64,000 nt of DNA from an uncultured Acidobacteriota bacterium (lineage in GTDB: Bacteria; Acidobacteriota; Thermoanaerobaculia; UBA5066; Gp7-AA6), in NCBI GenBank assembly GCA_963823185.1, contig CAWGKP010000006.1, positions 215,113-279,112 on the forward strand, read 5' to 3'. The notes under the pieces were generated by a model. That model made no database searches. It was not told the origin of the DNA and saw nothing but the letters and a program-made list of their open reading frames with translations. Below are positions 19,266 through 42,146 of this stretch, piece by piece. The position numbers and the translations under genes were made by a program. Position 1 is the first letter of the stretch, and each line of letters begins with the position of its first letter.

Positions 19266-19478
19266 CTACGGCGCCGCCCGGTGCATCACGTCCGGCTCGA
19301 AGACCTCCTCGATCAGCTTCCCGAAGACCTGGGCGATGCCGAACGCGAGCGGCAGGCTCGGGTCGTAGCGGCCGGTCTCGATCGCGTTGACGGTCTGGCG
19401 CGAGACGCCGAGCCGCTCCGCCAGATCCGCCTGCGACCAGTCGCGCTCGGCACGTAAAACCCGGAGGCGGTTCTTCAT
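19266..19478 (-). CDS. XRE-family helix-turn-helix transcriptional regulator (70 aa)
   Basis: MKNRLRVLRAERDWSQADLAERLGVSRQTVNAIETGRYDPSLPLAFGIAQVFGKLIEEVF. ATGA overlaps the upstream membrane-protein gene. Confidence 0.9.
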   Translation of the reverse strand: MKNRLRVLRAERDWSQADLAERLGVSRQTVNAIETGRYDPSLPLAFGIAQVFGKLIEEVFEPDVMHRAAP

Positions 19479-20062
19479 CGGTAGCGACGGTTCGCGAGAA
19501 CCATTCCGACGCCGCACGTGAGGACGAGGACTCCCGCCATCCAGACCCAGTTCAATCTCGGTAGACCAGCGGCTTCGAGCGCGGCGCCGGCCAGGGCGGC
19601 GAACAGCGAAACGACGAACCCGAATGCGAGCGCCTCCTGGGCGATGCGGCGCTGCAACTCGTCGGCGCGGCGCGCGATGCGGATCGTGCTCCAGGCGAAG
19701 AGAGCAGCGGGAGCGAGCGGCAGCAGCGCGGCGAAGAGCGCGAGAGGCGATCCCTTCGGCGCCTTCTCGTGGAGGCCGAGAAAGAAGATGAAGCTGAGCA
19801 TGCCGGCTTCCATCAGGGCCGCATCGTCCTGGCGCCTCCACATGCGGAGGATGGCCCACGCCGCCAGCGCGAGCCCGGCCACCGAAACGACACCGAACGA
19901 AAGCGCGTAGCTCGACCCCGGCACCCGCAATGCGCGCCCGGTGGCCACGAACGCGAGGATGAAGACGGCGGCGCCAATTCCCATCAGGATCAGGTCCGGT
20001 CCCGACTCCTTCATCGGCCTCACTCCGGAGGGACCGCAAATGCCCAATTCGACATGAGACAT
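19475..20062 (-). CDS. small polytopic membrane protein paired with the XRE regulator
   Basis: About 4 TM helices. Start chosen at ATG 20062 (AGGA 6 nt upstream). ATG 20014 and the track start 20110 are alternatives. Confidence 0.7.
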   Translation of the reverse strand: MSHVELGICGPSGVRPMKESGPDLILMGIGAAVFILAFVATGRALRVPGSSYALSFGVVSVAGLALAAWAILRMWRRQDDAALMEAGMLSFIFFLGLHEKAPKGSPLALFAALLPLAPAALFAWSTIRIARRADELQRRIAQEALAFGFVVSLFAALAGAALEAAGLPRLNWVWMAGVLVLTCGVGMVLANRRYR

Positions 20063-20162
20063 CGGTTTCCTCGCTTTCTGGATCATGGATAGGTCGTGCA
20101 TGCTTGGCAAAATGTAAAGTTATCTTGTCATACGTGGCCGACGAATCGTTGTTTTAGGATCA

Positions 20163-20191
20163 TTGACTTACGCCTTATTTACGCCTAACGT
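20163..20191 (+). promoter_or_regulatory. sigma70-like promoter with embedded direct-repeat operator upstream of imuA
   Basis: TTGACT-17 nt-TAACGT. The spacer carries AyTTACGCCT twice at 11-nt phasing. The first 25 nt match 38698..38722 (upstream of dnaE2) at 24/25 positions. Confidence 0.65.
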
Positions 20192-20217
20192 GGCCCTCCT
20201 TCGATTCGGAGGTCCGC

Positions 20218-21072
20218 ATGGGCGCATCACAGGCTCTCGCGATCGAGCGGTTGCTCGCGGAGAGCCTTGGCTCCGCGAAGAAGAAGGACGGCGTCCTGCT
20301 CGCCGGCCTCGGCGCCCGGCTCCGTCGCGCCTCGGAGCTCGCCGCCCCGCTCGAAACGCCGGGCGCGCTGCCGACGGCGCTCGCGCCGCTCGACCGCCTG
20401 CTTCTCGGAGGGCTCCCGAAGGGACGGCTCGTCGAGCTCTCGGGGCCGCGTTCGTGCGGGCGCTTCTCGCTCGGAATCGCGGCGCTCGCGGCGGCGACGT
20501 CGAGCGGCCTCGCCGCGGCGCTCGTGGATCTCGGCGATCACCTCGACCCGCAGGCGGCCGAGGGCGCGGGCGTGGACCTGCGATATCTCCTCTGGGCGCG
20601 GCCTCGGCGCGTCCGGGAAGCGCTCGCGGCGGCCGAGATGCTGCTCGCCGCGGGCTTCCCGCTCGTCGTCGCGGACCTGGGGCTCGCGGCGCGCACGCGC
20701 GGAACGCCCGACGCCGCGTGGGTGCGCCTGGCGCGCGCGGCCGCGGCGCAGGGGGCGGCGCTCCTTCTTTCGACGCCGTGGCGCGCGAGCGGCATCGCCG
20801 CCGACGCGGTCGTCTCGGCTTCCCGCGCGCATCCGGTCTGGCGGGGAAGCGGCCGCGCGCCGCGCCTTCTCGCCGGTCTCGCCTCGCGGCTGATGCTCGA
20901 GAAGCTCGGCCGCGCGACACCGGGAGCGGCCGTGCCGTCGGTTTTCCACGCCGCGGAGGCGCTCCCGGTGTTTCCGCCCCAGGCGTCTTTCGCCGCCTAC
21001 GAGGCGATTCGCGAAATTCCCGGGAACCCGTCGAATCCGGCATTGAAGCTCATGAGCCGGACGATCCCCTGA
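20218..21072 (+). CDS. imuA: ImuA-like RecA/SulA-fold protein of the imuA-imuB-dnaE2 mutagenesis system
   Basis: 284 aa. LDRLLLGGLPKGRLVELSGPRSCGRFSLGIAALAAA...ALVDLGDHLDPQAAEGAGVDLRYLLWARP is the typical ImuA core. It lies directly upstream of imuB, with GGAGG-N5-ATG. Confidence 0.75.
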   Translation: MGASQALAIERLLAESLGSAKKKDGVLLAGLGARLRRASELAAPLETPGALPTALAPLDRLLLGGLPKGRLVELSGPRSCGRFSLGIAALAAATSSGLAAALVDLGDHLDPQAAEGAGVDLRYLLWARPRRVREALAAAEMLLAAGFPLVVADLGLAARTRGTPDAAWVRLARAAAAQGAALLLSTPWRASGIAADAVVSASRAHPVWRGSGRAPRLLAGLASRLMLEKLGRATPGAAVPSVFHAAEALPVFPPQASFAAYEAIREIPGNPSNPALKLMSRTIP

Positions 21073-21094: not shown

Positions 21095-22738
21095 GTGACC
21101 CGAATGCGCCTCGCGTGCGTCCTCGTTCCGCTCTTCCCTCTTGCGGCCCGTCTGCGCAGCGAGCCGGACCTCAAAGGAGAGGCCGTCGTCCTCGTCGAAG
21201 GCAACGGTAACGCCGCGCGCGTGATCGCCGCGTCGCGTCCGGCGCGCCGCGCCGGCGTGGATGCGGGCATGACGCTGCCCCAGGCGCGGGCGCTCGTGCC
21301 GAAGCTGCTGGCGCGCGCGCGAGACCGCGAGAGCGAGCGCGCGGCGCAGGAGGCGATGCTCGAAGTCGCCGACGCGTTCTCGCCGCGCGTCGAGGACGGC
21401 GGCGAGGGCGTGATGTACCTCGACCTCGAGGGCATCCCGGCGCTGTCGGGCGACCACAAGCACAAGGGCCGCCCCGACGGTGATTCGGCGCTGAAGGTAG
21501 GGACGGGGGTGAGCGCCGGGCGAACCCGGCGCTTGTCGCGCTCTGCGAGCGCTCGGTGCGTCCCCGCCGGTGATCCGGAACCCGAGCGCGCGCTCGGCCG
21601 CGACCTCATCGCCGCCGTCGAGAAGACGGGCCTGCCCGCGCGCGCCGGCATCGCCTCCTCCAAGCTCGCCGCACGCGTCGCGGCGGGGCTGCCCGATTCG
21701 CCGGGAGTCGTGCCTCCGGGTGAAGAAGCGGAATTCCTCGCGCCGCTGCCGCTCGCGCGCCTGTCGCCGGAGATCGGGATCTCCGAGACGCTCGGGAGAT
21801 GGGGTCTGCGCTCGATCGGAGATTTCGCGAAGCTGCCTCCCGGCGAGATCGAGAGCCGGCTCGGGTCGCTCGGGCGGCGGCTGCACGCGTCCGCACGCGG
21901 GCGGGATCTCCGACCGCTCGAGCCGCGCCTGCCGGCGCTCTGTCTCTCCGAGGGCCTGGAGCTCGAGTGGCCGCTCGTCACGCTCGAGCCCTTTCTCTTC
22001 GTCGGCCACGCGGCGCTCGAACGGCTCACGGCGCGCCTCGACGGGCTGGGGCTCGCCTGCCGCCGGCTCGAGCTGACGATGACGCTCGATCCCGACGGCT
22101 GCGACGCGCGCGCGATCGCGCTGCCCGCGCCGACGCGCGACGTGAAGACGCTGCTGACGCTCGTGCGCCTGGAGCTCGAGGCGCGGCCTCCCGGGTCGCC
22201 CGTCGTCGGCTTCACTTTCGCCGCGCATCCCGACAAGCCGCGCCGCGCGCAACTTGCCCTCTTCGGGCCGCCGGCGCTGTCGCCCGACCGCCTCGCCACG
22301 ACGATCGCGCGTCTGGCCGCGCTGCTCGGCGCCGACCGCGTCGTCTCGCCCCGCGCCGCCGACGGCCACCGCCCCGAGCGCTTCGCCTCCTCCGGATACG
22401 AGCCGCCGCCTCCTCCCGAGATCGCGCGGCCGCCGCGCGCGGGACGCGGGCTCCTCGCCGTGCGCGTGCTGCGTCCGCCGGTGGAGCTCGAGGTCATGGA
22501 ATCTCCGGGAGATCCGGCCGGCCGGCCGGCCCGCGTCCGGTCCGCGCGCGACGCGACCCCCGAGATCGCGGGATCGGTGCGCGTGGCGGCGGGGCCCTGG
22601 TCCATGGAAGAAGGCTGGTGGTCCGACGCCCCTGCCGCGCGCGACTACTGGGACGTGGAGCTCGCCGAAGGCGGCCTCTACCGCCTCTACCGCGACCGCG
22701 CGTCGCGCGCGTGGTTCGCCGACGGCGTCTACGATTAG
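21095..22738 (+). CDS. imuB: ImuB, Y-family DNA-polymerase-like protein
   Basis: 547 aa. N-terminal [15 protein letters not shown]...VVLVEG...[17 protein letters not shown] and the C-terminal [19 protein letters not shown]...WFADGVYD tail are typical of ImuB. Confidence 0.85.
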
Positions 22739-36251: not shown

Positions 36252-38180
36252 ATGTGCGGAATCGTCGGCATGTTCTCGCCCCGCGGCCGGGTCTCGCGGG
36301 AGACGCTTTCGCGCGCGACGGAGCGTCTGCACCACCGCGGTCCGGACGGGCGGCGTCTGTGGATCGCCGACCATGGACGGGTCGGCCTCGGGCACGCGCG
36401 ACTCTCGATCATCGACCTGACGACGGGCGACCAGCCGATCGCGAGCGAGGACGAGCGCCTCCACATCGTCGTCAACGGCGAGTTCTACGACTACGAGCGG
36501 ATTCAGAGGGAGCTCGAAGGCCTCGGTCACCGTCTGCGAACGCGCTCGGACAGCGAGATCGCGCTGCACCTCTACGAGGACTTCGGCACCGCGTGCCTCG
36601 CGCGGCTGCGCGGCGAGTTCGCGATGCTCCTCTGGGACGAGGGAAACCAGGTGCTCTTCGCCGCGCGCGATCGGTTCGGCATCAAGCCGCTCTTCTACGC
36701 GGAGCACCAGGGGACGCTCTATCTCGCCTCCGAGGTGAAGGCGCTCTTCGCGGCCGGAGTTCCGGCGCGCTGGAATCGCGAGGCGATCGCCCGCGGCGCG
36801 AGCGGCGCGGGGCACCCGGCGCAGACCCTGTACGAGGGCGTCTCGCAGCTCCTGCCGGGCCACTACCTGCTCGCGACGGCCGCCGGCACGTACGTCCACC
36901 GCTACTGGGACTTCGACTACGTGCGCGCCGCGGACGAGTCGCGCTCGCATTCGGACGCCGAGAATGCCGAGCGGCTCCGGGAGGCCCTGGAGGAGGCGGT
37001 GCGGCTCCGGCTGCGGGCCGACGTGCCGGTCGGCTGCTATCTGAGCGGCGGCCTCGACTCCTGCTCGGTCATCGGGCTCGCGTCGCGGCATCTCTCGACG
37101 CCGATCCGCGCGTTCACGCTGACCTTCGACCAGCCCGACTACGACGAGAGCGCGATCGCGAAGGAGATGTCCGCGAAGGCGGGAGCCGAGTACTACCCGG
37201 TGCCGATCCGACAGGATGATCTGGCCGACCATTTCTCCGACGCGACGTTCCACGCGGAAACGCTTTGCTTCAACGCGCACGGCGTCGCGAAGTTCGTTCT
37301 CTCCCGCGCGGTGCGCGACGCCGGATACAAGGTCGTGCTGACGGGGGAAGGATCCGACGAGATCTTCGGCGGATATCCGCACTTCCGGCGCGACATGCTG
37401 CTCTACGACAACGGCGGCCAGGATCCGCAGACGGTGAAGGAACTGCTCGCGCAGCTCGAGCGGAACAACCCGGTCTCGCGCGGCCTGCTCCTGCCGGACG
37501 GCGAGACCATCTCGACCGCCGGCGTGCAACGCGCGCTCGGTTTCACGCCCTCGTGGATCGAGGCGGCTTCCGGCGCGCTCTTCAAGATGCGCGGCATGCA
37601 GGCGAGCGCCTTCGCGGCGGAATTCTCCGGGCGCGACGGCTATCGGGCCCTGCTCGACAGCCTGGACGTGCCGGGACGGCTCGCCGGACGTGCGCCCGTT
37701 CACCAGTCGCTCTATCTCTGGAGCAAGACGATCCTCGCGGGCTACATCCTCGTCGTGCTCGGCGACCGCATGGAGATGGCGCACTCGGTCGAAGGGCGCG
37801 TCCCGTTCCTCGATCACCACGTCGTCGAGCTCGTGGTGTCGTTGCCGGTGTCGGCGAAGATCCGCGGCATGACGGAGAAATTCGTCCTCCGCGAGGCGGC
37901 GCGCCCCGTCCTGACCGACACGGTGTACAAGCGGCAGAAGCACCCGTTCCTGAGCCCGCCGGCGACGCTCGACGACAAGGGGAAGCTCCATCAGCTCATG
38001 CAGGACACGCTGCGCGGGCCGGTCCTGCGCTCGATGGGCTTCTTCGATCCGGCGAAGGTGGCGCGCCTGCTCGACGATCTGCCGCGCATGGACGCCGGCG
38101 CGCGAACCGTGGTGGATCAGGGTCTGATGCTCATCCTGTCCGCGTGCGTCCTCCACGAGCGGTTCGGCCTCGCGGCCTGA
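36252..38180 (+). CDS. asnB: asparagine synthase (glutamine-hydrolysing)
   Basis: MCGIVG Ntn-amidotransferase start after a GGAGGAG RBS, and PP-loop YLSGGLDSCSV. 642 aa. Confidence 0.9.
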   Translation: MCGIVGMFSPRGRVSRETLSRATERLHHRGPDGRRLWIADHGRVGLGHARLSIIDLTTGDQPIASEDERLHIVVNGEFYDYERIQRELEGLGHRLRTRSDSEIALHLYEDFGTACLARLRGEFAMLLWDEGNQVLFAARDRFGIKPLFYAEHQGTLYLASEVKALFAAGVPARWNREAIARGASGAGHPAQTLYEGVSQLLPGHYLLATAAGTYVHRYWDFDYVRAADESRSHSDAENAERLREALEEAVRLRLRADVPVGCYLSGGLDSCSVIGLASRHLSTPIRAFTLTFDQPDYDESAIAKEMSAKAGAEYYPVPIRQDDLADHFSDATFHAETLCFNAHGVAKFVLSRAVRDAGYKVVLTGEGSDEIFGGYPHFRRDMLLYDNGGQDPQTVKELLAQLERNNPVSRGLLLPDGETISTAGVQRALGFTPSWIEAASGALFKMRGMQASAFAAEFSGRDGYRALLDSLDVPGRLAGRAPVHQSLYLWSKTILAGYILVVLGDRMEMAHSVEGRVPFLDHHVVELVVSLPVSAKIRGMTEKFVLREAARPVLTDTVYKRQKHPFLSPPATLDDKGKLHQLMQDTLRGPVLRSMGFFDPAKVARLLDDLPRMDAGARTVVDQGLMLILSACVLHERFGLAA

Positions 38181-38284
38181 TCGCGATCGTCGCGTCGCTT
38201 CACACGCCCTTCACAATCTTCTCGCAAGATTCGCGGGCTCCGCGCCGCGTGCCGCGCGCCGCGAGCCGGGGCAGGGAGGACGCG

Positions 38285-38653
38285 ATGCCTTCGACGCATC
38301 TCTTCGAGCACAACACCGATGCCCGGAGCGTTCCCGCCGGGACCGTGATCTTCGAGGCGGGAGACAAGCGCGACTACATGTACGCCGTCGTCGGCGGCGA
38401 GGTGGAGCTCTTCGTCAACGGCCAGCACGTCGAGACCGTCGGCCCCGGAGGGATCTTCGGGGAGATGGCGCTGATCGACAAGGAAGCGCGGACCGGCCGC
38501 GCCGTCGCGAAGACCGACGCGAAGGTCGTCGAGGTGGACGAGCGCCGCTTCCTCTTCCTCGTGCAGCAGACGCCCAACTTCGCGATCCATCTGATGCGCG
38601 TGCTGTCGGACCGCCTGCGCCGGATGGATCGCCGGATCGCGCAGCAGGCGTAG
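38285..38653 (+). CDS. stand-alone cyclic-nucleotide-binding domain protein
   Basis: GGGAGGA RBS. GGIFGEMALIDKEARTGRAVAKTD phosphate-binding cassette. 122 aa. Confidence 0.8.
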   Translation: MPSTHLFEHNTDARSVPAGTVIFEAGDKRDYMYAVVGGEVELFVNGQHVETVGPGGIFGEMALIDKEARTGRAVAKTDAKVVEVDERRFLFLVQQTPNFAIHLMRVLSDRLRRMDRRIAQQA

Positions 38654-38697: not shown

Positions 38698-38726
38698 TTG
38701 ACTTACGCCTGATTTACGCCTAGATT
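38698..38726 (+). promoter_or_regulatory. sigma70-like promoter with embedded direct-repeat operator upstream of dnaE2
   Basis: TTGACT-17 nt-TAGATT. The spacer is nearly identical to that of the imuA promoter at 20163..20191. The -10 hexamer ends 6 nt before the only canonical start (GTG 38733). Confidence 0.65.
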
Positions 38727-38732
38727 CCGGGC

Positions 38733-41700
38733 GTGTCCGAGAAGCGAAGCCGCGCCTCGGAGAACGATCCCGGGACGCCTCCCGCGCGCAACCTGGGAGC
38801 CGGCAACGCGAGCTGCGGGGCGCACGATCGCGACGGCGATCCGCTCGCGCGGATCGTCGCCGCCGGCGCGCGCAAGGAGAAGCTCCGCCAGCGCTCCTGG
38901 AAGCCGCACGCCTCCCACGCGAGCCCGCGTTCGTACGCCGAGCTGCGCGCCGCCTCGGCCTTCTCGTTTCTCGACGGCTCGTCGCTGCCCGAGGACCTCG
39001 TCGAGCAGGCGGCTCGCCTCGATCTGCCGGCCGTCGCGCTCGTGGATCGCAACGGCGTCTACGGCGCTCCGCGCTTCTACAAGGCGGCAAGAGAGGCGGG
39101 AGTGAAGGCGCTGGTGGGAGCGGAGGTGACTTTGCGAACGCTGGGTCATCCCGAGGAGCACAGCGTAGGGGCCGGGCTTGTCCCGGCCCGCGGAGAGACG
39201 GGCGGCCGCAAGGGCCGCCCCTACGATTCTCGCGCGGGTGGCAAAGCCGCCACGCGGCTCACGCTCCTCGTCGAAAACCGCGCCGGCTACAGGAATCTCT
39301 GCCGTCTGATCACGGCCGGCGCGCTCGGGAAACCCAAGGGCGAGACGGCGGTGTCGTGGGACGAGGTCGCGGCGCACGCGGAGGGACTGCACTGTCTGAC
39401 CGGCGGCGCGGAAGGGCCGGCCGCGCTCGCGCTCGCGTCGTCCGGTCTCGAAGCAGCCGATGGAACTCTCGCGCGGCTCGCCGCGCTGTTCCCGGGCCGC
39501 CTGCACGTCGAGCTCCAGAGGCACCGCCTTCGCGGGGAGGAGCATCGCAACCAGGCGCTCGTCGATCTCGCGCGGCGCAAACGCCTGCCGCTTCTCGCCA
39601 CCAACGGCGTGCGCTACGCGCGCGCGCGCGACAAGGAGCTCCACGACGTCCTGACCGCGATCCGCGAGCACACGACGCTCGACGCCGCGGGAAGTCTCCT
39701 CGCCGCCGAGCGCGAGCGGCACTTCAAGGACGCGCGCGAGATGGCCGCGCTCTTCGCCGATCTTCCCGAGGCGATCGACGGCGCCGCCGATCTCGCGAAG
39801 CGCCTCGACTTCACGCTCGCGGACCTCGGCTACCGGTTCCCCGACTACCCGCTGCCGCCGGGCGAGACGCCGGCCTCGTACCTGCGGCAGATCGCGTGGA
39901 ACGGCGCGCGCACGCGCTTCCGTCCGCTCACGGCGAAGGCGCAGGCGCAGATCGAGAAAGAGCTCGCGATGATCGAGAAGCTCGATCTGCCCGGCTACTT
40001 CCTGATCGTCTGGGACATCGTGCGCTTCTGCCGCGAGCAGAAGATCCTCGTGCAGGGACGCGGATCGGCCGCCAACAGCGCCGTCTGCTACGCGCTCTCG
40101 ATCACGGCGGTCGACCCCGTGAAGATGGAGCTGCTCTTCGAGCGGTTTCTCTCGGAGGAGCGCGGCGAGTGGCCCGACATCGACCTCGATCTGCCTTCCG
40201 GCGACCAGCGCGAAAAGGTCATCCAGCACGTCTACGCGAAGTACGGCCCGCACGGCGCGGGCATGACGGCCAACGTCATCACCTATCGCGACCGCTCGTC
40301 GGCGCGCGAGGTCGGCAAGGCGCTCGGCTACGCGCCGGAGCAGGTGGACCGGCTCTCGAAGCACCTCGCGGGCTGGAACTTCGGCGAGATCCGCGAGCCG
40401 ATCGAAGAGCTCGGCCGGGAGATCGCCGCCGCGGGCCTCGATCCCGAGGACGTCCGCACGCGCCACTTCCTGCGCCTCTTCCTCGCGATCCAGAACCTGC
40501 CGCGGCACCTCGGGCAGCACTCGGGCGGGATCGTCGTCGCGGCCGGCCGCCTCGACGAGGTCGTGCCGCTCGAGCCGGCGGCGATGCCGGGCCGCGTCGT
40601 CGTGCAGTGGGACAAGGACGACTGCGCCGATCTCGGGATCGTCAAGGTGGACCTGCTCGGCCTCGGCATGCTCGCGGCGCTCGAGGAGGCGATTCCCATG
40701 ATCCGCGCGCACGAGAAGGTCGAGGTGGATCTCGCGCACCTGCCGGCCGACGACCCGAAGGTCTACGCGATGCTGAACGAGGCGGACACGGTCGGCTGCT
40801 TCCAGGTCGAGAGCCGCGCGCAGATGGCCTCGCTGCCGCGCAACGCCCCCCGCCGCTTCTACGATCTCGTCATCCAGGTGGCGATCATCCGGCCGGGACC
40901 GATCGTGGGCGGCATGGTGCACCCCTTCTTCGACCGGCGGCAGGGGAGGGCGCCCGTCGAGTATCCCGATCCCTGCCTCGAGCCGATCCTCGCGCGCACG
41001 CTCGGCGTCCCGCTCTTCCAGGAGCAGCTCCTGCGCATCGCGATGGTCGCGGCGGGATTCACGGGCGGCGAGGCGGAGGAGCTGCGGCGCGCCATGGGGT
41101 TCAAGCGCTCCATGGAGCGGATGGAAGCGATCGAGACGCGGCTGCGCGCGGGCATGGAGGCGCGCGGGATCGGGCCGGCGGCGCGGGACCAGATCGTGAA
41201 GTCCATCACGTCGTTCGCTCTGTACGGCTTCCCGGAATCGCACGCGGCGAGCTTCGCGCTCATCGCGTACGCGAGCTGCTATCTCAAGGCGCACCACCCG
41301 GCGGCCTTCCTCGCCGCGCTGCTCAACTGCTGGCCGATGGGCTTCTACCACCCGGCCACGCTCGTCAAGGACGCGCAGCGGCACGGCGTGGCCGTGCGCC
41401 CGGTGGACGTCCTGCGCTCGGGCTGGAAGTGCCGCTGGGAAGAGGGCGCGGTGCGCCTCGGCCTGCGCTTCGTCGCAGGCCTGCGCGAGGCAACAGGCCG
41501 GCGCGTCGAGGAGGAGAGCGGGCGGACCGCCTTCGCCGGCGTCGAGGACCTCGCGCGGCGCTGCACGCTGCGCGCCGACGAGTTGACGCTGCTCGCCGAC
41601 GCCGGAGCGCTCGCGGGATTCGGGCGAACGCGCCGCGAGGCGCTCTGGCAGGCGGCGAAGGTCGCGCGGCCCGCGGGTCCGCTCTACGAAAGCCTGCCGG

Positions 41701-42146
41701 CCGGCGACGCGTCGCCGTCGCCGCTGCCCGAGATGACGCCGCAGGAGGAGACGATCGCCGACTATCGGACGACCCAGATGACGGCCGGCCCGCATCTGAT
41801 GGAACACTGGCGCGCGCGACTCCGCCGCCGCGGAATTCTCGCGGCGGGAGATCTCGCGAAGATCCCCGACGGCCGCCGCGTCCAGACGGCGGGCGCCGTC
41901 ATCGTTCGGCAGCGTCCGGGCACGGCGAAGGGATTCGTGTTCCTGACGCTCGAGGACGAGAGCGGCCTCTGCCAGGCGATCGTACGCCCCGATCTCTTCC
42001 GGCGAGAGCGCGCCGTCATCGTGGGTTCGGGGTCGCTCATCGTCGAGGGGAGGCTGCAGAAGCAGGACGGATCGCTCTCCGTGAGGGCCGAGAGGTTCTG
42101 GACGCTGGACGAGCTCGAGGCCGTCCCGAGCCACGACTTTCGCTAG
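38733..42146 (+). CDS. dnaE2: error-prone DNA polymerase III alpha-subunit paralogue DnaE2
   Basis: 1137 aa. PHP N-terminus YAELRAASAFSFLDGSSLPEDLVEQAARLDLPAVALVDRNGVYGAPRF, core ...GRGSAANSAVCYALSITAVDP...LPDIDLD...FQVESRAQM..., and C-terminal OB region. About 67 aa of non-conserved N-terminal extension. Confidence 0.9.
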   Translation: MSEKRSRASENDPGTPPARNLGAGNASCGAHDRDGDPLARIVAAGARKEKLRQRSWKPHASHASPRSYAELRAASAFSFLDGSSLPEDLVEQAARLDLPAVALVDRNGVYGAPRFYKAAREAGVKALVGAEVTLRTLGHPEEHSVGAGLVPARGETGGRKGRPYDSRAGGKAATRLTLLVENRAGYRNLCRLITAGALGKPKGETAVSWDEVAAHAEGLHCLTGGAEGPAALALASSGLEAADGTLARLAALFPGRLHVELQRHRLRGEEHRNQALVDLARRKRLPLLATNGVRYARARDKELHDVLTAIREHTTLDAAGSLLAAERERHFKDAREMAALFADLPEAIDGAADLAKRLDFTLADLGYRFPDYPLPPGETPASYLRQIAWNGARTRFRPLTAKAQAQIEKELAMIEKLDLPGYFLIVWDIVRFCREQKILVQGRGSAANSAVCYALSITAVDPVKMELLFERFLSEERGEWPDIDLDLPSGDQREKVIQHVYAKYGPHGAGMTANVITYRDRSSAREVGKALGYAPEQVDRLSKHLAGWNFGEIREPIEELGREIAAAGLDPEDVRTRHFLRLFLAIQNLPRHLGQHSGGIVVAAGRLDEVVPLEPAAMPGRVVVQWDKDDCADLGIVKVDLLGLGMLAALEEAIPMIRAHEKVEVDLAHLPADDPKVYAMLNEADTVGCFQVESRAQMASLPRNAPRRFYDLVIQVAIIRPGPIVGGMVHPFFDRRQGRAPVEYPDPCLEPILARTLGVPLFQEQLLRIAMVAAGFTGGEAEELRRAMGFKRSMERMEAIETRLRAGMEARGIGPAARDQIVKSITSFALYGFPESHAASFALIAYASCYLKAHHPAAFLAALLNCWPMGFYHPATLVKDAQRHGVAVRPVDVLRSGWKCRWEEGAVRLGLRFVAGLREATGRRVEEESGRTAFAGVEDLARRCTLRADELTLLADAGALAGFGRTRREALWQAAKVARPAGPLYESLPAGDASPSPLPEMTPQEETIADYRTTQMTAGPHLMEHWRARLRRRGILAAGDLAKIPDGRRVQTAGAVIVRQRPGTAKGFVFLTLEDESGLCQAIVRPDLFRRERAVIVGSGSLIVEGRLQKQDGSLSVRAERFWTLDELEAVPSHDFR
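39165..39224. repeat. two REP-like hairpins lying in frame inside dnaE2
   Basis: GTAGGGGCCGGGCTTGTCCCGGCCC (39165..39189) and GGGCGGCCGCAAGGGCCGCCCCTAC (39200..39224). The second is identical to 49317..49341. Confidence 0.85.

Follow-up and report, generated by a model that had tools for sequence, protein, structure and literature searches.

The LexA binding motif has changed repeatedly in evolution, which is unusual among global regulators. In Deinococcus, the DdrO/IrrE system consists of an XRE-family repressor and the IrrE protease, and the operator, called RDRM, is palindromic and 17 bp long. PafBC, a WYL-domain activator, acts through the RecA-NDp motif, which replaces the -35 element at DNA-damage genes including imuA'-imuB and dnaE2. 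The LexA box of Acidobacterium capsulatum is reportedly GTTC-N7-GTTC. A direct-repeat LexA box of this form is known in Alphaproteobacteria (PMC3323433), and the study of A. capsulatum LexA by Mazon et al. 2006 (Microbiology 152:1109) is cited by its title in PMC7739468 and PMC3323433. In Balneolaeota, the LexA motif is the direct repeat TTACACATATTTTWTACATA, which was found by comparative genomics and validated by EMSA; the regulon includes lexA, recA, translesion polymerases and a radical-SAM protein (PMC7739468). The LexA box of Bdellovibrio bacteriovorus is given as TTAC-N3-GTAA in the passages of PMC3323433 and PMC8565304 that cite it, and the PafBC/RecA-NDp promoter motif was described in Actinobacteria (PMC8151990).

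The stretch of DNA analysed here (the window; 64,000 nt, G+C approximately 71%) contained two nearly identical promoter regions. The window had two copies of the sequence TTGACTTACGCCT[T/G]ATTTACGCCTA, one at 20163-20187 upstream of imuA-imuB and the other at 38698-38722 upstream of dnaE2. The region upstream of imuA (20163-20191) read TTGACTTACGCCTTATTTACGCCTAACGT and that upstream of dnaE2 (38698-38726) read TTGACTTACGCCTGATTTACGCCTAGATT; the first 25 nt were identical at 24 positions, with a T/G difference at position 14, which bore out the positions and the 24/25 match given in a preliminary description of this DNA. When up to three mismatches were allowed, TTACGCCTNATTTACGCC had 2 matches in the window compared with 0.01 expected. 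The 8-mer TTACGCCT occurred four times in the 64 kb, always at the imuA and dnaE2 sites; the expected number was 0.45, and none of 100 shuffled sequences reached four copies. On the forward strand upstream of imuA, the -35 hexamer TTGACT (20163-20168) was followed after 17 nt by the -10 hexamer TAACGT (20186-20191), and the start codon was 27 nt further on, at 20218. The candidate LexA box between them (20168-20185) consisted of TTACGCC at 20168-20174 and again at 20179-20185. Upstream of dnaE2, also on the forward strand, the -35 hexamer TTGACT was at 38698-38703, the second copy of the candidate box at 38703-38720 (TTACGCC at 38703-38709 and 38714-38720) and the -10 hexamer TAGATT at 38721-38726. 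The repeats started 11 nt apart at both sites and had the form TTACGCC-N4-TTACGCC, in agreement with the tandem direct repeat with 11-nt phasing proposed earlier. The TTGACT, 17-nt spacer and TAnnnT claimed for both promoters were likewise read at both, and the promoter-consensus scan called only that of dnaE2 (TTGACT-17-TAGATT, 9/12). The imuA -10 hexamer was weak by consensus, with 3/6 matches and a score below the scan threshold; it fits the TAnnnT of the 159-site position matrix described below. Nothing relevant was found in the window by Rfam, tRNA and tandem-repeat scans.

The first site preceded imuA (20218-21072, forward strand), identified by domain search as encoding a RecA-fold ImuA-type protein; the gene had a Shine-Dalgarno sequence GGAGG at 20208-20212, and the N-terminus of its product, MGASQALAIERLL, was kept in homologs. 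It formed an operon with imuB (21095-22738, forward strand), in which the domain search found a Y-family IMS domain. ImuA and ImuB, encoded together, scored 52.3 bits against PF00154 and 75.7 bits against PF00817, respectively. Against the NCBIfam ImuA model, ImuA scored 40.8 bits, far under the cut-off of 150, indicating that it is of a divergent ImuA type. The error-prone DNA polymerase gene dnaE2 (38733-42146, forward strand, GTG start) was assigned with NF004225 (1256 bits, cut-off 939). The imuA-imuB-dnaE2 cassette was not one contiguous operon, dnaE2 lying 16 kb from imuB with its own copy of the promoter-operator. The separation of 16 kb given earlier is correct for the gap between the end of imuB and the start of dnaE2, but not for the sites themselves, which are 18.5 kb apart. 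Neither lexA nor recA was found in the window by tblastn, and the earlier statement that it contains no lexA gene was confirmed. The GTG codon of dnaE2 is 6 nt after the -10 hexamer, so the mRNA is probably leaderless; the gap was 6-9 nt in the window and in orthologs. In the imuA leaders of the window (20193-20220) and of orthologs (L001-L062), the -10 hexamer was closely followed by a run of pyrimidines (CTCCC/TTCCCC) that was complementary to GGAGG in 28/28 cases. All 28 folded with this tract paired to GGAGG, in a putative hairpin that would mask the Shine-Dalgarno sequence. The mean z-score was only -1 and the predicted start site fell in the 5' arm; leaderless genes also had this TCTCCC tract, between their -10 hexamer and start codon. 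The gene at 37265-38653, which ends 45 nt before the dnaE2 promoter, encoded a protein of 462 aa whose C-terminal part carries a cyclic-nucleotide-binding domain (PF00027); no DNA-binding domain was found in this protein and no link to the shared operator was seen.

Scanning metagenomes with an ImuA alignment gave 80 loci. Of these, 77 had the motif at a distance of 25-110 nt before the imuA start codon, with ImuA identities as low as 52%; the three loci without it were cut off upstream. The ImuA homologs came from Acidobacteriota and were mostly labelled Thermoanaerobaculia in the records. The sequence on both sides of the 25-nt core was not conserved, indicating that the core is under selection of its own. 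A position matrix built from 159 distinct site contexts gave the consensus cTTGAC-TTACGCC-TtwT-TTACGCC-TAnnnT, in which both TTACGCC 7-mers were almost invariant (1.6-2.0 bits per position). TTGAC abutted the first repeat in approximately 90% of the contexts and TAnnnT followed the second in approximately 87% (A at position 2 of the -10 hexamer in 139/159, T at position 6 in 138/159), showing that the operator fills the 17-bp spacer exactly. Approximately 10% of the sites had no hexamers and were inverted, lying immediately downstream of the -10 hexamer of another recognisable promoter or across its start site; these inverted sites were found at lexA (L207), radical-SAM genes, a DinB-family gene and the genes for a 180-aa protein. 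Because the site is independent of orientation and overlaps the promoter core, it reads as a repressor operator and not as an activator site or sigma-factor element. A third repeat 11 nt downstream seemed present in some imuA loci (e.g., L023 and L062). However, positions +22 to +28 of the 159-site matrix carried little information except for the T of the -10 hexamer, and this weak repeat was therefore left out of the operator.

The exact pattern TTACGCCTNNTTTACGCCT was searched for in 185,579 species genomes, one per species, and the genes downstream were classed with BLASTX and with scans against Pfam and NCBIfam. Since the pattern came from the two window sites, the sample is biased toward perfect sites. 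At least 81 sites were in Acidobacteriota-type contigs, and 39 further matches listed were in unrelated taxa without promoter context, some of them simple 11-mer tandem arrays. Among the 81 sites listed, the gene downstream was imuA, with or without imuB, at 34 and dnaE2 at 18, so that the layout of the second window site recurred before dnaE2 in at least 18 genome loci. Next came a long XRE gene (7), a radical-SAM gene of the Rv2578c/PA0069 type (5), canonical lexA (3), the gene for the 180-aa protein (3), and a DinB-family gene, a gene for a 97-aa protein and dcm (one each); the other eight had no class. Several genomes had two different targets each, e.g., MFD02809.bin.2.209 (dnaE2 and lexA) and H1-B1 bin.190 (lexA and imuA). 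No recA gene was found by tblastn among the fetched loci of relatives. The protein of approximately 180 aa (L215, L262 and L319), whose promoter carried the inverted box just after its -10 hexamer, had no Pfam or NCBIfam match, and its gene is a candidate new SOS gene. The preliminary description had proposed a genome-wide search, in which the motif was expected before lexA, recA and other SOS genes; run on relatives, this search placed it before lexA, imuA, dnaE2, radical-SAM and DinB-family genes. Nor was the motif confined to the two window sites, as it was present at the genome sites counted above and at nearly all metagenomic imuA loci.

Other repeats were encountered in the same data. 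At least three tandem 11-mers TTACG(C/A)(C/T) were seen at approximately 270-300 of a Candidatus Angelobacter locus (L245; Acidobacteriota, not labelled Thermoanaerobaculia), and such arrays were also seen in other taxa (L238, L239, L249 and L288). Approximately 65 nt downstream of the Angelobacter array is an ORF that we take, by eye, to resemble an internal segment of UvrA. The repeats in viral contigs (IMG/VR, L081-L200) belonged to an unrelated family, ATTACGCCAAAATTACGCCAA, and were set apart from the acidobacterial motif. This direct repeat was often 130-260 nt from a contig end (e.g., L155 991-1008) and once approximately 150 nt from tRNA-Leu; in viral contigs it may represent integrase arm-type sites.

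Because lexA was rare in the strict-pattern sample, lexA loci were fetched independently. All 21 loci fetched after the scan had the repeat or its TTCCGCC variant inside the lexA promoter, and they encoded two LexA lineages that were 53% identical. In lineage 1, 13/13 loci (about nine distinct sequences) carried CTTGAC-TT[A/G]CGCC-N4-TTACGCC-TAnnnT at approximately 134 nt before the start codon ATG. One locus among them was on a 4.28-Mb contig that also encoded the ImuA homolog P0022 and had a dnaE2 site (L227). LexA homologs of the L216 type were 81-93% identical. In lineage 2, 8/8 loci carried CTTGAC-TTCCGCC-N4-T(T/G)(A/C)CGCC-TATATT at the same promoter position. Two extra TTACGC repeats were present upstream in L337-L339 and L341, giving four tandem repeats with the 11-bp register kept, and a perfect inverted copy also abutted the start codon of the lineage-2 lexA in L207. 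The LexA proteins of relatives scored 196 bits against TIGR00498 (cut-off 111) and contained the LexA_DNA_bind (PF01726) and Peptidase_S24 (PF00717) domains; both lineages passed TIGR00498 and kept both domains. LexA from L216 aligned over its full length with the Thermotoga and E. coli LexA structures, and the AAG, GDSM and LKR motifs in both lineages aligned with E. coli A84-G85, S119 and K156. Judged by these alignments, the LexA of relatives, as distinct from the window's own genome, is canonical, with the predicted Ala-Gly cleavage site and Ser/Lys dyad intact. The stretch SS(F/Y)GTVxKHL was common to both lineages and aligned with RSPNAAEEHL of E. coli, which differs there; it is taken to be the recognition helix. 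SSFGTVxKHL is presumably closer to the Gram-positive type SSSTVHGHL than to the alphaproteobacterial type. The 5' leader of lineage-1 lexA (approximately 115 nt) held a nearly invariant element of approximately 55 nt, AGGCCGAnGGGTCGTTC...GGCCACGGnGCGACCGCGgTGGtTCCnTCGGCCTA (e.g., L321 3900-3960 and L322 2625-2685), which had no Rfam match, a predicted hairpin with an unremarkable fold z of -1.4 and almost no covariation.

Since relatives carry the repeat before lexA and other DNA-damage genes, TTACGCC-N4-TTACGCC is most likely a LexA operator, and we predict that it is the SOS box of Thermoanaerobaculia. The preliminary description had suggested a repressor site, possibly a direct-repeat LexA box, and this suggestion was supported by the motif at 21/21 lexA promoters and by its occurrence in either orientation with respect to promoters. 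Autoregulation of lexA is likewise supported by the box in the lexA promoter. The near-fixed position in the promoter spacer is atypical compared with known SOS boxes and counts against the LexA reading. We infer that LexA binds the repeat, that it represses these genes and that DNA damage induces them. The shared 25-mer would be a sigma-70-type promoter with its spacer exactly filled by the 18-bp operator, in which two direct TTACGCC repeats are one helical turn apart. A LexA dimer would occupy these two half-sites, 11 bp apart on the same face, cover the DNA between the -35 and -10 hexamers and exclude RNA polymerase, and imuA-imuB and the separately encoded dnaE2 would be silent together despite the 16 kb of unrelated genes between them. 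Upon DNA damage, RecA would be activated and LexA would cleave itself; its loss would open both promoters together with those of lexA, the radical-SAM repair gene, the DinB-family gene and the HTH regulators.

The candidate box resembles GTTC-N7-GTTC in that it is a direct repeat and not a palindrome, keeps an 11-bp register and is found at lexA and at imuA-imuB-dnaE2; A. capsulatum, the reported acidobacterial host of GTTC-N7-GTTC, is of the same phylum as the window organism. However, the half-site here was the 7-mer TTACGCC, which is longer and nearly invariant in the 159 sites, and no GTTC repeat was found at these promoters in the 159-site matrix. The TTACGCC box also differed from GTTC-N7-GTTC in being placed almost invariantly inside the promoter spacer. 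With the Balneolaeota box it shares the direct repeat, a TTAC-type half-site, a poorly cultured host phylum and a regulon with lexA, translesion polymerases and a radical-SAM gene. The repeat sequence and spacing differ, and the Balneolaeota box is EMSA-validated with recA in its regulon, whereas the TTACGCC box is a candidate predicted from sequence. The Bdellovibrio box has the TTAC core in common with TTACGCC, but it is a short palindrome compared with the 18-bp direct repeat here.

HTH proteins of the XRE family were tied to the regulon in three ways, by a box of their own, by a place in the lexA operon and by divergence from imuA, and any of them could bind the repeat. The long XRE proteins (178-440 aa) had an HTH_3 domain in the N-terminal part and a conserved LxxMLEGFxNLLRYWH helix in the C-terminal part, separated by a region of low complexity. 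The box was in their own promoter at L233, L236, L252, L269, L287 (e.g., gene at 2068-2985), L297 and L313, and the gene was divergent from queE in six of these seven loci, the exception being L236. In lineage 2, lexA was followed after 20-50 nt by a gene for a 140-aa HTH_3/HTH_31 protein in 8/8 loci (L334-L341, e.g., L334 1240-1665), and such a gene was also present in L207 (5509-5928). We know of no described counterpart of this apparent lexA-xre operon. The main alternative to LexA, conceivable but unlikely, is that the repeat is the operator of the long or the 140-aa XRE regulator, with lexA as one target of a DdrO-like damage regulon. The motif in the long XRE promoter (7/81 scan sites listed) fits autoregulation as well as that in the lexA promoter does, the HTH_3 gene behind lexA was constant in lineage 2, and some XRE proteins, e.g., SinR, bind tandem repeats. 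However, the long and the 140-aa XRE proteins were alike only within the HTH (approximately 38% over 39 aa), indicating that no one XRE protein goes with the motif in the two lineages alike, whereas LexA does so with the recognition-helix residues kept. No IrrE/COG2856-type protease or sensor domain was seen beside the long XRE gene within a context of a few kb, where the neighbors were queE and a cupin gene, and the content of the regulon is that of a classical SOS response. The link between XRE proteins and a DNA-damage regulon is shared with DdrO/IrrE, but the site here is a direct repeat and not an RDRM-like palindrome, and a cleavable LexA is present together with the motif.

A site for an activator, or a specialised promoter element such as a PafBC-dependent RecA-NDp-like motif or a response-regulator direct repeat, is very improbable. 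In its favor, the motif had an almost constant place within the promoter in approximately 90% of sites, RecA-NDp is likewise part of the promoters of DNA-damage genes, and direct repeats of 10-11 bp are typical of OmpR/PhoB-type activators. However, a near-consensus -35 TTGAC and a TAnnnT at 17 bp were present here, so no activator is obviously needed, and the -35 element is not replaced as it is by RecA-NDp. A protein bound in the spacer, which this site fills, blocks polymerase, and the inverted copies after the -10 hexamer or over the start site suit a repressor and not an activator, nor a motif of fixed orientation upstream of the -10 such as RecA-NDp. The motif at lexA itself further separates this system from PafBC/RecA-NDp.

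The third HTH protein is encoded beside imuA in the window. A small XRE-family regulator of 70 aa (19266-19478, reverse strand; HTH_3, 7e-16) overlapped by ATGA with the gene for a 179-aa membrane protein without a family match (19475-20014, reverse strand), which was first in the divergent operon. A consensus scan found a divergent promoter-like site for this operon, TTGCCA-17-CATGAT (20082-20110, reverse strand). Between this site and the imuA promoter was a second conserved element, the palindrome TGTAAAGTTATCTTGTCA (TRTMAAG-N4-CTTKWCA; 20113-20130, 0.2 expected). The fetched loci (1.28 Mb) contained 94 matches to the palindrome, of which 84 were at most 120 nt upstream of an imuA box, often as paired copies 21 bp apart; the palindrome was absent at the dnaE2 site of the window. 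A role of the 70-aa protein as a repressor specific to the cassette, bound to the TTACGCC repeats, is highly improbable. Its gene was kept divergent from imuA in 41/80 metagenome loci (70-96% identity) and in 11/34 imuA loci among the genome matches listed. However, the gene tracked the palindrome, which is almost only upstream of imuA; no such gene was near the TTACGCC sites at dnaE2, lexA or radical-SAM genes, and many imuA loci had the box without the XRE gene or the palindrome. The palindrome is probably the operator of the small XRE regulator, as predicted from this co-occurrence, and suggests an extra control specific to imuA. That the repeat is a recently duplicated or mobile promoter cassette without a dedicated binding protein is scarcely credible, since the 24/25 match of the window copies includes the hexamers but the 159 distinct contexts share the 25-nt core only, with all flanks different, the conservation spans ImuA identities of 45-95% and different genes, and the inverted copies have no hexamers.

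Returning to LexA as the predicted binder, the elements could be combined in one module, in which an almost invariant promoter-operator is reused at every SOS gene and a second layer is formed by XRE-family proteins, namely the small XRE with its palindrome, the xre gene in the lexA operon and the box-controlled long XRE. We put this module forward tentatively, at slightly below even chances. If the LexA operator and the XRE layer are both true, the mutasome would be under dual control. In a more radical variant, one XRE protein and not LexA would read the repeat and control lexA itself.

A literature search returned no description of the TTACGCC motif or of SOS regulation in Thermoanaerobaculia (the 7-mer as a query alone mainly returned primers), and TTACGCC-N4-TTACGCC would be a LexA operator so far undescribed in the papers searched. 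Each new LexA motif helps to reconstruct the history of motif change. The present one would join the direct-repeat LexA boxes of Alphaproteobacteria, Acidobacterium and Balneolaeota, and would be of use in asking how a repressor that acts as a dimer can change from a palindrome to a direct repeat. For the split mutagenesis cassette, co-regulation would be explained by the shared operator. Both the XRE regulators linked to the regulon and the rigid geometry of the promoter-operator offer testable leads to further control of error-prone replication. Thermoanaerobaculia are abundant Acidobacteriota of soil and sediment and are almost entirely uncultured; the TTACGCC motif would let SOS regulons be predicted directly from the metagenome-assembled genomes of this class.
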